The notes: generated by a model not told the origin, from the sequence alone. A DNA stretch of 9,442 nt from a virus (IMGVR_UViG_2548876961_000016), one strand, 5' to 3'. Positions 1 through 8,222 are shown, counted from the first letter of the stretch. Numbers and translations are program-made.

Positions 1-173
1 TGTCAGTTATCATCTTCGGTTACGGTTATCGGCAGAACGCCCTGCCGCTGACAAGAGCTTATTTGCCTGACCAATCTACTCCACATGATAGATAACTATC
101 ATTTATAACATTTCATTGATTAGTCTTTATTTTTCACTATGTTACAAATAACAACTCCGTCAAAAACAGCGAA

Positions 174-230
174 ATTAACTACACCATTAACTACACCGTT
201 TCACGAACAATATCGAACAACCACGAACAA
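174..230. repeat. Tandem 12-bp repeat ATTAACTACACC x2 followed by three CGAACAA repeats at 10-bp phasing
   Basis: ATTAACTACACC at 174-185 and 186-197; CGAACAA at 204-210, 214-220 and 224-230. Helical phasing suggests a protein-binding array. Confidence 0.55.
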
Positions 231-291
231 AGATCAACACGCTTTAACCGTTATCATTTTCCGGCCATCCGTTATGAAGCTGGTGGATGTT

Positions 292-396
292 CCCCGATAT
301 GGGTATCCCCACCTACCTGGCTTTTTTTCCGGTTAAATGTTAATCAGGCTGGTGGCCTTTACATACCCTTGATCACGGTAATGATGATTCAGGTGC
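292..396. repeat. Copy A of a roughly 105-bp direct repeat
   Basis: About 95% identical to 818-933 over the shared core CTGGCTTTTTTTCCGGTTAAA(T/C)GTTAATCAGGCTGGTGG(C/G)CTTTACATACCCTTGATCACGGTAATGATGATTCAGGTGC. Copy A carries a deletion in the leading palindrome. Confidence 0.7.
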
Positions 397-817
397 GTAC
401 CTTTTCCCCAGTGGGGTAAAAGCTCCAACCGTAACGATGTTCGTTGTGGTTGCCTTGATGGTCTGCGTGGTCATTATGACCATTCAGAATTTGAAGGGTG
501 ATGTTTCCGATCTCCTCAAATTGAGGATTGTGGAAGAATCAATGGGTTAGTCTTACTTTCCCAACATCCCCCAATGGGGGTTTTCGAAATAATCAATGGG
601 TTAGGCCATAGTGCAATTTTGCACTATGGAACAATTCCAACCAGTTATCGGCATCAGGCCCACCAGCCAACGCAATTTTGCGCTTTGCTTTAATCTCAGT
701 AAGTTACCGCGCCAATTTCCGCAGTCTGTGGAAATTGGGAAGAATCAACGGGTTAGGCTGGTTTCCCCGATGTTCGCCGCTGGCGAATTTCGAAAATATC
801 AACCAGTTACCGCCGTA

Positions 818-933
818 TCCCGATATGGTGATCCCCATATCGAGATTGGATACCTGGCTTTTTTTCCGGTTAAACGTTAATCAGGCTGGTGGGCTTTACA
901 TACCCTTGATCACGGTAATGATGATTCAGGTGC
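818..933. repeat. Copy B of the roughly 105-bp direct repeat
   Basis: See copy A. Begins with the CCCGATATGG..CCATATCG palindrome-like element and ends with ...GATTCAGGTGC. Confidence 0.7.
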
Positions 934-936
934 TTC

Positions 937-962
937 CCCGATATGGTGATCCCCATATCGGG
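937..962. repeat. Perfect inverted repeat CCCGATATGG-(6 nt)-CCATATCGGG just downstream of the 307-aa gene
   Basis: 10-bp arms. Related copies at about 819-844 (right arm 8/10) and about 293-312 (right arm degenerate). No U-tract follows on the minus strand, so it is not a canonical terminator. Confidence 0.6.
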
Positions 963-978
963 ATAGATGCTGGAAAAA

Positions 979-1902
979 TCAGCTTTTCGCCAGAACGGTG
1001 ACGGCCTTATCGAGTTTTTGCCATCCGCAATAGGTGATTGCCCTGAACGCTGTAGCGTCATTCTGGAAAAGGCTAACCGCCCCTGATTCGGTTTTTATTA
1101 CCGCCTCATCAGTTGGGGTTATAACCGTGGCTTCAACGTTAATAATCAGCTTTTGAGCGTCTATCAGCATCATGCGATCCGCCTGTTCGCTCACAATTAC
1201 CGGTATTCTCAAAAGCTCTATCTGCCAGAACTCAGCATCAGTAAGCTGTAAGGCGTTTTCTACGGGCAATATTAGCGACGACGTGGAAAGCGTGTTACCG
1301 TTCGCTATGTGCTTTTTGAAAATCTCTATGAAGTTTTCGGCCTCATCAGCACCATTAAGCACGCCCTCAGGGGATACGCCAGCCACCTCCTGATCACTGG
1401 AAAGAAATTTTTTATCTATTTCTTTCACCGATTCCGATGTGATCAAGTCTCTGATCGCTGAATTTGTACCAGGGGTGCTAAATTTGATTAGCTCGTTATT
1501 CAGCATCACAATAGCGCCAAGTTTGCACAATTTTAGCGCACTTTCGTTTACTTCTCCCTCTTTGACAGGGATTTCTTCGGCTTCTTTAAGCCATTTACTA
1601 CCCTTGCCTGATATTGAATGCAATTTTGCGCCAAACGGAAGATTAAGCGCGCTGCTGATTAGCTTGCCTGGTACAGACTGCGAAAAAATATACTCGCCAA
1701 GCTCTCTTACTATCGGCTCTGCCACCAGCGACGGCATGTTATCCGTAGTCATTCTGTTGACGATGGATTTTTCAAGAAATTTCGATACTGCCGGATCATT
1801 TCTTTTCGTCATCTCTATAGCGTCAGCATGGCTAAATTTACACGATGCCAGCACGCTGGCGGCGCGAACTGCTGACACGCCTTTCATGTTTTTACAGATC
1901 AT
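979..1902 (-). CDS. Putative HK97-fold major capsid protein homologue (307 aa); product call tentative
   Basis: Strong RBS (AGGAGGAGGAAGAAG before the ATG). A central segment (LGAIVMLNNELIKFSTPGTNSAIRDLITSESVKEIDKKFLSSDQEVAGVSPEGVLNGADE, then SSLILPVENALQL) follows the conserved HK97-family pattern (SdELl.ds...sYi...L......E...fLnGdGtg..p.Gil, then sGivlNP.dw..i). Judged by eye, not by search. Confidence 0.55.
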   Translation of the reverse strand: MICKNMKGVSAVRAASVLASCKFSHADAIEMTKRNDPAVSKFLEKSIVNRMTTDNMPSLVAEPIVRELGEYIFSQSVPGKLISSALNLPFGAKLHSISGKGSKWLKEAEEIPVKEGEVNESALKLCKLGAIVMLNNELIKFSTPGTNSAIRDLITSESVKEIDKKFLSSDQEVAGVSPEGVLNGADEAENFIEIFKKHIANGNTLSTSSLILPVENALQLTDAEFWQIELLRIPVIVSEQADRMMLIDAQKLIINVEATVITPTDEAVIKTESGAVSLFQNDATAFRAITYCGWQKLDKAVTVLAKS

Positions 1903-3483: not shown

Positions 3484-3530
3484 TTATTTTTACCCCCCTC
3501 GTTTAAAAAGTTTTAGGTTGTGGTGCACCT

Positions 3531-3756
3531 CCTCTACCTCTTCTACCTAATCATCTTTCAGGTCAGTAATGGCGCGGCTTTCAGATGGGTAGAGGACTTT
3601 TCGTGGCCCTCTACCCATCCTCTACCCGCCCCTCACAAACGACCTTAATCATGGTAGAGGGGGTAGAGGGGTTTTATTAGCCTTCTACCTATCCCTCTAC
3701 CCACTTATCATGTTGAATAATATGCGTTTATTTCATTCAGGTAGATGGGGTAGAGG
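3531..3756. repeat. Iteron array (about 10 copies of GGTAGAGG / CCTCTACC in both orientations): putative origin of replication
   Basis: CCTCTACC at about 3531, 3608, 3619 and 3694; variants CTTCTACC at about 3541 and 3682; GGTAGAGG at about 3588, 3653, 3662 and 3749; variant GGTAGATGG at about 3740. Several copies are 9-12 bp apart, with AT-rich flanks, immediately downstream of the primase stop. Confidence 0.6.
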
Positions 3757-3770
3757 GCTTTTACAAAAAA

Positions 3771-5519
3771 TTATAAAAACGCGTCACAATCATCCGTTGT
3801 AATTGCGTTGGTCTGCGTTACTCCCTTAACTTTTCGCGTAATATATTCATGTCCGTAAACTTTCGCCGCTGGCTTCATGGCCTTGCTGAAATCAGCCACG
3901 TTTAGCGGCTTGCTTCTTCCTGCGTATGCCATAAACGCCAGATAGACGCGGTAAAGGCTGTTTCTGGTCGTGTACTTCACGGAATCGCCACCGCCACCCA
4001 TCATCAGGCCGCGCGCTTCCTCCAGAAAATTCAGGAACTGGCAAAACTCAATAACCGGATCTGTCTGTTGCTTTATCGCCAGTGCTTCATCACCGTCGCG
4101 CTGTTCCAGTAATAAAGCCCGTGCCTTTTCAGGGTCAGCAAAATTAGCCAGCAAGCGGCGGATAATCACAGGGATTTCAGCCGCGACCTTCTCCGGCAAA
4201 TCCTTGTCCTTTTCTGCCTCGCTAACGATATTGTCAAAGCGAAAAATAACCCGACGACGTGCCACGCCTCCGGCCCGTTCGGTGAATATCATCGGGTTGT
4301 TGTTGGTCGCCAGCACCACCGCCCTGATTACCGCCGTGAAACGCTTTTCATATTTCGGGTTAATTTCCACGGGGTCGCCGCCCGTGATTTTCTTGATGCC
4401 CGTTCCTTCGCCTGTATATTTCGGCTGGTCAGCCAGGACGATAAGACGACTCCCGACAACCTGCGCGCGCCCTCCTGCATCATCGAGTGATGTCATCTCC
4501 GCGCTTACGGTGTTCTGTTTCCCTGCCAGAAGGCTGGCTATGTGTGTGAATGTACTTTTACCGCTCCCGCCGTCTCCGGTGGCCTCAATAAACATCTGCC
4601 AGTCGTACCGGTTCGCCATAATCATGTACAGCGCGGCACATATACGCATCATCTTGCGCGGGTCTTTTCCGGCTGCGTGCTCAAGCCATTTATGAAAGTT
4701 TGGCGCGTTGTCGCGAATGTTCTCCCCTGGTGCTGGTGGCGTGTACTCAATGCCGTTGTGCGTGGTGATCCAGTTCTCCGGCGTGTGCGGGGAAAATTCC
4801 CCCGTTTTCAGGTCAAGTGCACCATTGGCGAACGGCAGCAAATCGCCGGACGGCTCCCCCATTGGTTCGGCAATAACTTTTAACGCTTCAACGGCGTTAT
4901 TGATCACGCGTTTGCTGAAAGTGGCCCTGTGCTCTGAATAGATCGCCACCATTTCGCGGCTAAGTTCCATTGTGCTGACCGGACACCATACCCCGCCGCG
5001 CCATACGTGAACGATTTCACTTTCAGGATGTACGCAAACGCCATCAAAGCGATCGGCAAGCAGCTGGGCGCGCTCACTGTCTGCCATTTGTGCCAGTTGC
5101 GTATTTTTCTGCTCCGGCATGGTAAGCCCTGCGGCAATATTTTCACGCTCAGCATTCAGATAGCGCCGCCAGTTTTCACACTTCTGACCGTGCATTCCTT
5201 CGGGGTAAAATTTTGCATCCTGTACGCCTGCCGCCGCCAGCTTCTGACCAATCTTTTTGGTCTCCACCAAGTCCAGTTCTCCTGCCTGGTACAGCCTTAC
5301 GCGTTTTTTTCCATCAGGAACAATTTGCAGTGCATAAAGTTCGGCAAGCTGATTTGGCCCAAGCCACACAGGAGGCACATTATCGCCGGATGCGGGGCCG
5401 TCCTGCTCCTGCCACTGTTTTGCATGTGCCCACGCATCACTACCCGCGAAAATAATCACCTCTGTGTCTTTGTGTTTTATTCCGCGTGGCTGTTTTTTTA
5501 CGTTCGGTGCCAGTTTCAT
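3771..5519 (-). CDS. Replication initiation primase/helicase (phage/plasmid primase, P4-family C-terminal NTPase type)
   Basis: 582-aa ORF with Walker A GDGGSGKST at residues about 315-323 and a candidate Walker B (RLIVLADQ). Its size and its position upstream of an iteron array match satellite and P4-like Pri/Rep or alpha proteins. Confidence 0.85.
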   Translation of the reverse strand: MKLAPNVKKQPRGIKHKDTEVIIFAGSDAWAHAKQWQEQDGPASGDNVPPVWLGPNQLAELYALQIVPDGKKRVRLYQAGELDLVETKKIGQKLAAAGVQDAKFYPEGMHGQKCENWRRYLNAERENIAAGLTMPEQKNTQLAQMADSERAQLLADRFDGVCVHPESEIVHVWRGGVWCPVSTMELSREMVAIYSEHRATFSKRVINNAVEALKVIAEPMGEPSGDLLPFANGALDLKTGEFSPHTPENWITTHNGIEYTPPAPGENIRDNAPNFHKWLEHAAGKDPRKMMRICAALYMIMANRYDWQMFIEATGDGGSGKSTFTHIASLLAGKQNTVSAEMTSLDDAGGRAQVVGSRLIVLADQPKYTGEGTGIKKITGGDPVEINPKYEKRFTAVIRAVVLATNNNPMIFTERAGGVARRRVIFRFDNIVSEAEKDKDLPEKVAAEIPVIIRRLLANFADPEKARALLLEQRDGDEALAIKQQTDPVIEFCQFLNFLEEARGLMMGGGGDSVKYTTRNSLYRVYLAFMAYAGRSKPLNVADFSKAMKPAAKVYGHEYITRKVKGVTQTNAITTDDCDAFL

Positions 5520-7357: not shown

Positions 7358-7392
7358 AAAAAAACGTCCTCGAACGTTGCCGAACGAGGACG
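7358..7392 (-). terminator. Terminator-like or attenuator hairpin directly abutting the alpA start codon
   Basis: Minus-strand RNA reads CGUCCUCG, a 12-nt loop, CGAGGACG, then U7, then AUG of alpA. The 8-bp GC-rich stem plus U7 looks like an intrinsic terminator for readthrough from int and the 257-aa gene, but the only Shine-Dalgarno-like sequence for alpA (GAGGA) lies inside the 3' stem arm. Confidence 0.45.
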
Positions 7393-7419
7393 ATTCTAGG
7401 CGGTAGTAAAACGCCGTTT

Positions 7420-7453
7420 GTGTGATATCACACTACCAGCACGTGATATCACT
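7420..7453. promoter_or_regulatory. Pair of palindromic operator-like sites (GTGTGATATCACAC and GTGATATCAC) about 21 bp centre to centre, upstream of alpA
   Basis: Perfect 14-bp palindrome at about 7420-7433 and perfect 10-bp palindrome at about 7443-7452, sharing the core GTGATATCAC. Two-helical-turn spacing is typical of cooperative dimer binding. The second site overlaps the stop codon of the 257-aa gene. Confidence 0.5.
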
Positions 7454-8222
7454 TTTTACGTTTTTGTTGAGATTCACGCCCCAAATACTTTTGCCATGTC
7501 TGCCAATGTGTTTTTGGAAATTCTATCCCTCTGGATGCAGCTATAGAATCAATTAAATCTGCTATTTTAGGTAATGATTCCGTGTCCAGGTCTACATCAC
7601 CCATTTCTGGAATAAGTTTAATTAAAGAGTAAATAACCTCATTCCTTTTTGACGATGCTTTTGGGCTATCTTCTGTTATCTTCGGGAAGTCTCCCGTATT
7701 TTTTATATTATCTAAATCACTAGCCATCACACACAAATAGTTAACATCAAATTCATAACCACCCTTACAAAAAACATACATGAGATTATCATCACCATAC
7801 TTATTCGTAAGATGAGAACATTTTATATATTGTCTCATGCTAAATTCGACATCAGCAAAAACATATGCCGGAGTATAATAAAACCCTGATAAGCTGCTAA
7901 CATAATAACATTTGATAGAATTCCCTACAGGACCAATAATGGCACTATCTAAAAATTCAGTGTCACCAGTTAAACCAACTGTAAAATTACTTCCAAAAAC
8001 AGCAGATTCATCATTGAAAGGATATTTTATTAATTCTTCCTCATTACAACCATTGATAAAATGACATAATGAAAAATTGAATTTTTTAGCATCAATTTTT
8101 GGTATATATACAGAAATATTAAGAGCACCTATATATGCGTAATGATAAAGATCTTTTATTGCACAGCCTAACTTTTCTGCCGCTTCAGGTAACGGATAAT
8201 AGAGTCTTTTAGGTAATTTCAT
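7449..8222 (-). CDS. Hypothetical protein, AT-rich cargo gene in the int-alpA slot; N-terminal HTH-like segment, remainder unrecognised
   Basis: 257-aa ORF whose start overlaps the integrase stop by ATGA. Residues 5-35 (LYYPLPEAAEKLGCAIKDLYHYAYIGAL) resemble an excisionase/MerR-like helix-turn-helix; the rest is Tyr/Phe/Asn-rich with no motif I recognise. G+C looks much lower (roughly one third, by eye) than flanking genes (about half). Followed by a hairpin plus U-tract (7358-7392). Confidence 0.65.
   Translation of the reverse strand: MKLPKRLYYPLPEAAEKLGCAIKDLYHYAYIGALNISVYIPKIDAKKFNFSLCHFINGCNEEELIKYPFNDESAVFGSNFTVGLTGDTEFLDSAIIGPVGNSIKCYYVSSLSGFYYTPAYVFADVEFSMRQYIKCSHLTNKYGDDNLMYVFCKGGYEFDVNYLCVMASDLDNIKNTGDFPKITEDSPKASSKRNEVIYSLIKLIPEMGDVDLDTESLPKIADLIDSIAASRGIEFPKTHWQTWQKYLGRESQQKRKK

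Follow-up and report, generated by a model that had tools for sequence, protein, structure and literature searches.

Tandem 12-mers and phased heptamers in the int-distal attachment arm of an Escherichia coli PICI as putative integrase and AlpA sites

The repeats at positions 174-240 probably form a protein-binding module in the int-distal att arm of a phage-inducible chromosomal island (PICI), where two tandem 12-mers would be arm sites for the integrase (Int) and phased heptamers would be boxes for the island AlpA protein. The array lies close to the island junction, the same composite is duplicated in the other arm, its geometry is fixed over five att sites, the two repeat types covary with the Int N-domain and with AlpA, and the attP junction itself was found in public contigs. 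From these relationships we infer which protein belongs to which repeat, and an effect of binding on the direction of recombination. The feature is ordinary in kind, being a tyrosine-recombinase att arm with putative integrase and recombination directionality factor (RDF) sites and no new kind of system. What appears to be new relative to the cited literature is the motif pair in this PICI integrase clade, the identical composite on both arms, and the covariation by which the doublet would go with Int and the heptamers with AlpA.

Results

The repeat array

The window analyzed here is a stretch of 9,442 nucleotides that begins one base past the clpS start codon and ends with the int start codon (its last three bases). 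Direct reading of the sequence gives ATTAACTACACC at 174-185 and again at 186-197 as perfect tandem 12-mers, a 6-bp spacer (gtttca), and then CGAACAA at 204-210, 214-220 and 224-230, with tat and cca as the successive spacers. TRF reports a period of 12 with 2.0 copies at 100% match and a period of 10 with 2.9 copies, and a repeat-family search also recovers the 12-mer as a repeat family. The two 12-mers and the three CGAACAA copies at a 10-bp period described in the initial annotation are confirmed by all of these; a fourth, degenerate box (TCAACAC, 234-240), which continues the 10-bp phase, had been overlooked.

The array is not a chance arrangement of common words. Exact CGAACAA occurs three times in the window on both strands, always inside the 204-230 cluster, and the 8-mer core of the 12-mer, ACTACACC, is confined to the two att arms within 25 kb of genome. 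Runs of at least three heptamers with at most one mismatch and exactly 10-bp spacing were counted in shuffled sequences, from which 0-0.01 are expected per island. Just beyond the heptamers lies a stretch, CCGTTATCATTTTCCGG (244-262), that is conserved in islands at three att sites (the window, L010 and L013/L016), and the sequence island-inward of it diverges among islands; it could mark the inner limit of the arm or be one more protein site.

Table 1. Coordinates of the att-arm features and of the two proposed binding proteins in the window.
Feature	Position	Strand	Basis or proposed role
Host DNA upstream of clpS	1..86	.	clpS start codon immediately left of base 1
Recombined att core, int-distal junction	87..107	.	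Three-way junction/empty-site alignment
IHF-like site AATCAATGAAATG	109..121	-	One mismatch to WATCAANNNNTTR; between core and arm sites; read from sequence
Two tandem 12-mers ATTAACTACACC x2	174..197	+	Putative arm-type sites for the integrase N-terminal Arm DNA-binding domain
Four heptamer boxes, exact 10-bp phase	204..240	+	Putative array for the island AlpA
alpA, 74 aa	7133..7357	-	Pfam Phage_AlpA, E = 3.4e-16; proposed heptamer binder
Tyrosine integrase, 407 aa	8219..9442	-	Proposed 12-mer binder; start codon = last three window bases

The island, its insertion site and the att core

The window is an E. coli PICI whose target is the 3' end of yljB, in the clpS-cspD interval. Its leftward gene set comprises int, a 257-aa ORF, alpA, a DUF4222 gene, a D5_N/DUF5906 primase, a Terminase_2 small subunit and a capsid-family protein, and the island has the marks of a Gram-negative PICI, with a size of about 10 kb, co-oriented int, alpA and pri-rep, a probable ori downstream of pri, packaging genes and a PICI-specific att site. 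The cspD-clpS site has been tabulated for EcCIIHE3034 and EcCI18098 with the core ATGATAGTTAT (Fillol-Salom et al., 2018, Table S1, PMC6092414), which is the reverse complement of the ATAACTATCAT block described below. The host part of the window is matched in 5425 of 5426 complete E. coli genomes, and in nearly all of these, empty-site genomes such as K-12 BW25113 included, the match is confined to window 1-106. At least 80% of window 1-1000 is matched in 36 genomes, and at least 80% of the whole window in 29.

Both junctions were placed by a three-way alignment of the left end of the window, the K-12 empty site and the sequence past int. An 11-bp block, ATAACTATCAT, is common to both junctions and attB, occurring at window 92-102 and at L001 21622-21632, 174 bp beyond the int start, while the empty-site homology stops at about window 102-106. 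The end of homology and the repeated block together place the core at 92-102, and the repeats therefore begin 71 bp inside the island at its int-distal end. The suggestion in the initial annotation that these are arm-type sites near the other attachment junction, and its expectation of a direct repeat of the att core beyond the window ends, are both borne out; the island boundary, which in the opposing case would have been far away, is 71 bp from the first 12-mer, and the module recurs on the int side.

The int-distal core consists of a host-side GATAGAT (87-93), a 7-bp overlap AACTATC (94-100) and an island-side ATTTATA (101-107). The attB sequence, GATAGAT-AACTATC-ATCTATC, is a perfect 7-bp inverted repeat with a 7-bp spacer; attP as reconstructed reads GATAAAT-AACTATC-ATTTATa, and the core of the related phoQ/roxA island reads GATAAAA-TATGTCC-TTTTATC. 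This is the usual layout of core-type sites flanking an overlap region. Between the core and the 12-mers, the IHF-like sequence of Table 1 is a putative IHF bend site, with a perfect IHF consensus at the equivalent spot in L008, L009 and EcCICFT073.

The att core includes the stop codon of the 24-codon gene yljB, which the island restores at the int-side junction, much as elements that insert into tRNA genes restore theirs. A tRNA or tmRNA 3' end near int had also been anticipated; the window contains neither, the nearest tRNA-Ser is 3 kb off, past clpA, and a tRNA/tmRNA target is ruled out, the target being the stop codon and 3' end of yljB. Rfam returned no family at gathering thresholds across the window, with a chance snoRNA-like match (E = 0.65) in 1-1100.

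The second module and its conserved geometry

The int-side arm, just outside the window and 24 bp upstream of the int ATG, reads ATTAACTACACC ATTGACTACACC gtgcat CGTACAA ggg CGAACTG tga CGAACAA ggg CGAACAA. This module is oriented in the same way as that of the window and its heptamers keep the 10-bp phase; about 50 bp beyond them comes CGAACAC cca CGAACAC, and then the core.

Among species-representative genomes, one locus with a relative of the integrase was useful, a Shigella copy in which int is disrupted and the distal arm is out of reach; in the E. coli complete-genome collection, relatives at 70-94% DNA identity occur in 1223 of 5426 genomes. Islands were fetched from the same site (L004, L005, L011, L012, L023) and from four others: phoQ/roxA (L008 and EcCICFT073 = L017), inside tqsA (L009, L015), smrA/abgR (L010, L024) and thiM/rcnR (L013, L016). 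The integrases at these four sites are 60-80% identical in protein sequence to that of the window. Arms were read out in every fetched island except L024, and all of these islands, over five att sites, carry a 12-mer doublet followed by phased heptamers on both arms. The gap between doublet and heptamers is 6 bp in most islands and 17 bp at thiM/rcnR.

The distance of the repeats from the junction, which had been proposed as a check on their function, is near-constant: the core block lies 66-74 bp from the distal doublet across islands (71 bp in the window island) and 125-128 bp from the int-side doublet (126 bp in the window island). Measured from the overlap center, the window island has 77 bp to the start of the distal doublet and 132 bp to the end of the int-side doublet. 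When the distinct arm sequences from this att site are compared, 3 of 118 motif positions are variable vs. 47 of 222 in the rest of the arm (Fisher one-sided p = 4e-7, a value that is indicative only as the sequences are related).

An exact search for the attP-specific junction found it at the predicted core in two public contigs. In L018 (IMG/VR; 90-111 and 10480-10780), the int-side arm leads into ATAACTATCAT and then into the distal arm with its 12-mers, and the other end of the contig carries the host clpS junction, which suggests either that island copies stand in tandem or that excised and integrated forms were assembled together. L022 (ENA metagenome; 39-60) contains the near-core boxes, the core and a complete distal module. 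Three further matches to the attP pattern, L019-L021, were unrelated AT-rich contigs and were discarded upon reading.

The doublets accordingly look as arm sites are expected to look, lying inside the element about 50-150 bp from the core, on both arms, and with a sequence unlike the core-type sites, which are GATAnAT inverted repeats unrelated to ATTAACTACACC. The heptamers likewise have the properties of an RDF array, as direct repeats at one-helical-turn spacing in an att arm (the general form of RDF sites; PMC7498355), with a cognate small HTH protein encoded in the island and boxes that track its allele. In one respect they depart from lambda, and from KplE1 as described, where RDF sites occupy one arm: the phased heptamers are on both arms in all islands examined.

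Integrase and AlpA track different repeats

The window integrase has a Pfam Arm-DNA-bind_3 domain (E = 2.1e-16, residues 8-95) and a Phage_integrase domain (E = 1.6e-17), and its N-terminal part can be aligned with the solved structures 3jtz and 3rmp of CP4-like integrase N-domains. The island AlpA matches PDB 8c3t, an "AlpA family phage regulatory protein", on which a literature search found nothing relevant. Comparison of both proteins with both repeat types among the islands (Table 2) suggests that the 12-mer follows the Int N-domain and the heptamer follows the AlpA allele.

Table 2. Protein variants and repeat variants in islands with both arms read.
Islands	Int N-domain segment	12-mer	AlpA type	Heptamers
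Window, L011, L012	GNLSVRHSTxGLLTWYF	ATTrACTACACC	A (TGVCRTTRYE)	CGAACAA
L008, L010, EcCICFT073	GNLSVRHSTxGLLTWYF	ATTrACTACACC	B (TGLSRxCRYR; 61% to A)	GRAACAA/GCAACAA/GACACAA
L009, L015	GNLSVKYLTSGKLTWYF	AGTGACTACACC (one distal copy AATGACTACACC)	B	As L008
L013, L016	GGLEIKHSKGGKLTWYF	AACTGACCACAC	A (L013 97% to window)	CGAACAA

The most informative pair is L008 and L009. Their AlpA proteins are 100% identical and their Int N-domains 78% identical, and since the Int C-terminal parts are 95% identical the pair isolates the N-domain; in the arms, the 12-mers alone differ, in four copies of four (ATTAAC to AGTGAC). The AlpA of L015 is near-identical to that of L008 as well. The 8-bp core of the 12-mer is the same in L008 and L009, and a protein that binds the core only is not told apart by this pair. 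The window and L013 give the same picture at another site, with AlpA at 97% and the Int N-domain at 60% identity, 12-mers that differ (AACTGACCACAC) and heptamers that stay CGAACAA; L016, with a type A AlpA, has an Int N-terminal sequence nearly identical to that of L013. The converse case is the window vs. L008/L010, where AlpA is down to 61% identity and the heptamers differ, with no change in the Int beta-hairpin segment or the 12-mers.

Taken over all islands, each of three Int N-domain variants has its own 12-mer variant whatever the AlpA allele and the Int catalytic part, in few lineages. Type A AlpA goes with CGAACAA and type B with GRAACAA/GACACAA; a sub-variant that retains the type A helix also retains CGAACAA, and the more distant alpA variants in L023 and L024 gave no new AlpA/heptamer combination. 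The strength of the covariation should be read against its sample of three Int N-domain types and two AlpA types in few independent lineages, and it is limited by the physical linkage of the int-side arm to int and alpA. The part of the initial annotation that took the whole array for recombinase sites holds for the 12-mers, which track the integrase arm-binding domain, and needs refining for the heptamers, which track AlpA and are more likely RDF or regulator boxes.

The distribution of the two motifs within islands differs in the same sense. The ACTACACC core of the 12-mer never occurs outside the att arms, unlike the heptamer arrays. Between int and alpA, EcCICFT073 (L017) has six boxes after the int stop (1885-1941) and three (2146-2172) about 55-80 bp before the alpA ATG. 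Arrays of this family were also located at L008 9616-9642, L009 9239-9265 and L013 9599-9625, and in capsid-forming PICIs a heptamer array stands upstream of the capsid operon as well. This suggests an AlpA regulon reaching beyond the att arms, and it is the pattern that would be expected of a regulator or RDF rather than of a recombinase.

In the window, the region directly upstream of alpA (7358-7460, minus strand) contains a pair of GTGATATCAC palindromes and, ending at the alpA ATG, a hairpin that has a T7 run (CGTCCTCGTTCGGCAACGTTCGAGGACGTTTTTTT). Two CGAACG lie in the hairpin loop region on the opposite strand, 10 bp apart. The region could be a terminator or attenuator combined with AlpA boxes.

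Other repeats in the window

Positions 500-812 (plus strand) contain at least five units of about 48-54 nt, in which a palindrome that differs from unit to unit (stem of 5-12 bp, loop of 3-4 nt) precedes a conserved GAAAr-WATCAAYNGGTTA-GGC/CCG, and this array is flanked by an 88-nt direct repeat (314-401 and 851-938). All four exact IHF-consensus matches in the window (0.55 expected) are in the palindrome array region. No lambdoid cosN and no Rfam match was found in 500-812. Similar palindrome arrays occur at the int-distal end of EcCICFT073, L008 and L009, and hence in cos-type and capsid-forming PICIs too. Tandem repeats of 12 nt also occur at 2324-2362 and 2576-2598, in the terminase small-subunit gene and a short way upstream of it; those at 2324-2362 encode a KKVT-type peptide repeat. 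Finally, 3527-3760, directly downstream of the primase stop at 3771, is a probable replication origin, in which GGTAGAGG/CCTCTACC is repeated at least 12 times, with copies facing either way.

Discussion

Comparison with known systems

The att site of phage lambda provides the classical reference, with arm sites P1, P2 and P'1-3, the Xis sites X1-X1.5-X2 and the IHF H sites in attP. The window resembles the textbook lambda arrangement in its heterobivalent integrase with distinct arm and core sites, its tandem arm sites, its RDF-like direct repeats and an IHF-type site between core and arm. It is unlike lambda in that the lambda Int N-domain belongs to another Pfam family, Xis sites occupy one arm only, and the lambda arm sites are 10-mers in mixed orientation, where here there are two identical composite modules.

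A closer parallel is KplE1 (CPS-53), in which the RDF TorI binds five boxes (GTTCG/GATCG/GTCCG) on the int-side arm, three of them 2 nt apart (Panis et al., PLoS Genet 2010, PMC2951348, where the arm-type site concept is also summarized). In the K-12 sequence these three boxes begin at L014 7934, 7944 and 7954, that is, at a 10-bp phase, with the core on one side and, on the other, the IntS arm sites that come before intS. GTTCG, found in these boxes, is CGAAC read on the other strand, and the three-box block has the 10-bp phase seen here. IntS also has an Arm-DNA-bind_3 N-domain, and the order is the same in both elements (core, two boxes, a gap, the phased block, integrase arm sites, int ATG), with the same box orientation relative to int. 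The differences are that the target of KplE1 is a tRNA gene, that its IntS arm sites carry a TAAA motif with no tandem 12-mers (PMC2951348), and that TorI boxes are described on the int-side arm only, while here the whole module is on the distal arm too. TorI and the window AlpA are moreover distant (31% identity over 62 aa, pairwise BLASTP E = 3e-5). The link between them rests on BLASTP and on the similarity of the DNA boxes, because a PDB phmmer search with AlpA did not retrieve TorI and TorI itself falls below the Pfam threshold.

The helper-embedded PICI motif tgTGTATTGCantgTGTATTGCa is also a tandem 12-bp doublet with an 8-bp core, present in two co-oriented copies per attP at 81 +/- 2 and 132 +/- 2 bp, compared with 77 and 132 bp here, although the measuring conventions may differ (NAR Genom Bioinform 2023, PMC10111431). 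Its core is TGTATTGC and that of the window is ACTACACC, so that the two are not the same by core sequence. In the part of that account considered here, the motif is reported absent from other PICIs and adjacent phased heptamers are not mentioned (PMC10111431). P4 Vis, CP4-57 AlpA and phage 186 Apl are small HTH proteins that act at att sites and promoters through direct repeats one helical turn apart (PMC7498355, PMC11963761), similar to what we propose; they are unlike the PICI proteins in that no PICI AlpA binding sites are defined in the cited literature, and Fillol-Salom et al. describe AlpA as an activator, not an excisionase (PMC6092414).

Alternative readings

Several other readings of the module were weighed. 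An improbable one is that a single protein, Int, binds all of the repeats, or that the assignment is reversed with AlpA on the 12-mers and the Int arm domain on the heptamers. Both motif types do occur in both arms at a fixed distance from the core, and the ACTACACC core is the same in L008 and L009; for the doubled motif of helper-embedded PICIs, the authors left the choice between Int and AlpA undecided (PMC10111431). A common binder or an exchange of roles is nevertheless hard to reconcile with a 12-mer that shifts with the Int N-domain while AlpA stays 97-100% identical, and with a heptamer that shifts with AlpA while the Int beta-hairpin segment is constant. PalpA, where AlpA acts, has heptamer arrays and never the 12-mer, and in KplE1 the GTTCG boxes belong to the RDF and the int-nearest sites to the integrase. 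It is quite unlikely, too, that the integrated distal module has a regulatory role besides, with AlpA or Int bound there controlling transcription toward clpS or blocking read-through. The island lies about 100 bp upstream of the clpS start codon, KplE1 arm sites double as PintS operators (PMC2951348), and a weak outward sigma-70-like match is found at 163..136 on the minus strand; yet promoter-like matches are at chance level (3 found vs. 2.3 expected), simple scans for promoters in the two arms did not exceed chance, the -10 hexamer of the 163..136 match is not kept in the close relatives L004 and L005, and the module is equally present at att sites with different neighbor genes.

The initial annotation also offered initiator or terminase binding arrays and a cos/pac element, all of which are rejected. 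Phased direct repeats are typical of origins, and the P4 alpha protein binds TGTTCACC octamers that loosely resemble TTGTTCG, the reverse complement of the heptamer, but it is very improbable that the module serves as iterons for the island primase or initiator, given that a separate iteron field of another motif (GGTAGAGG/CCTCTACC, 3527-3760) lies 3.3 kb away and the module is tied to the att core. PICI origins are in fact reported downstream of the primase gene (PMC10111431), just where the GGTAGAGG field lies. A small-subunit terminase (pac) array or a part of cos would suit an island that encodes a TerS (Terminase_2) and carries the array at its end, past the packaging genes. This too has very little probability and is excluded by position, with a second copy upstream of int, by the lack of a lambdoid cosN in the window, and by the presence of the module in islands of unlike packaging types: it is unchanged in cos-type EcCICFT073, which has its cosN elsewhere (L017 10259, 10998), and it also occurs in capsid-forming PICIs with a different terminase, so that it is common to cos-, TerS- and capsid-type islands. 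As for coding, an ATG-initiated ORF (139-336, 65 aa) does span the array and would give a small protein with an LTTP repeat. That this explains the repeats is exceedingly unlikely, as its ATG is ACG or GCG in the close relatives L004 and L005, the copy of the module upstream of int is non-coding, and the ORF is unannotated in every genome fetched.

A proposed mechanism

In the preferred reading, with Int on the 12-mers and AlpA on the heptamers, each 12-mer would receive one integrase protomer through its N-terminal Arm DNA-binding domain, and the catalytic domains of the same protomers would grip the core GATAnAT-AACTATC-ATnTATn (87-107). The arm would fold back at the IHF-like site that separates the core from the 12-mers. 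AlpA, predicted to be a winged-helix protein related to TorI and P4 Vis, would sit side by side on the four heptamers, one helical turn apart, where it may bend or stiffen the arm and thereby set the direction of recombination toward excision. Since the composite module is duplicated in the other arm, the four 12-mers over the two arms could seat the arm domains of an integrase tetramer.

Published work on EcCICFT073, which has the same arms as the window island, bears on this indirectly. AlpA activates its own promoter, PalpA, and AlpA over-expression leads to Int-dependent excision and replication without activation of Pint (PMC6092414). The PalpA activation and the excision speak for reading the heptamers as AlpA boxes; the unchanged Pint under AlpA, despite the boxes adjoining int, counts against it.

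A broader possibility, which we put forward tentatively and would rate as somewhat unlikely, is that one AlpA code is used at four places: on each of the two att arms, at the promoter of alpA and, in those PICIs that form capsids, at that of the capsid operon. AlpA would then be both the missing excisionase and the master activator of Gram-negative PICIs, acting in an intasome with one identical composite module (an Int doublet and an AlpA filament) per arm. If AlpA is excisionase and activator at once, this would account for excision upon AlpA over-expression without more int transcription. A symmetric intasome of two modules is not described for lambda or KplE1.

Significance

PICIs are widespread satellites that move virulence and defense genes, and their excision is understood only in part; in the cited literature AlpA is known as an activator, and no excisionase and no AlpA or Int binding site is defined for these islands. 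The present analysis provides an att-site map of both arms, with the core, an IHF-like site, a putative Int doublet and putative AlpA boxes, together with a sequence rule that relates motif to protein. With such a rule the limits of PICIs could be set precisely, and islands able to cross-excise could be predicted.
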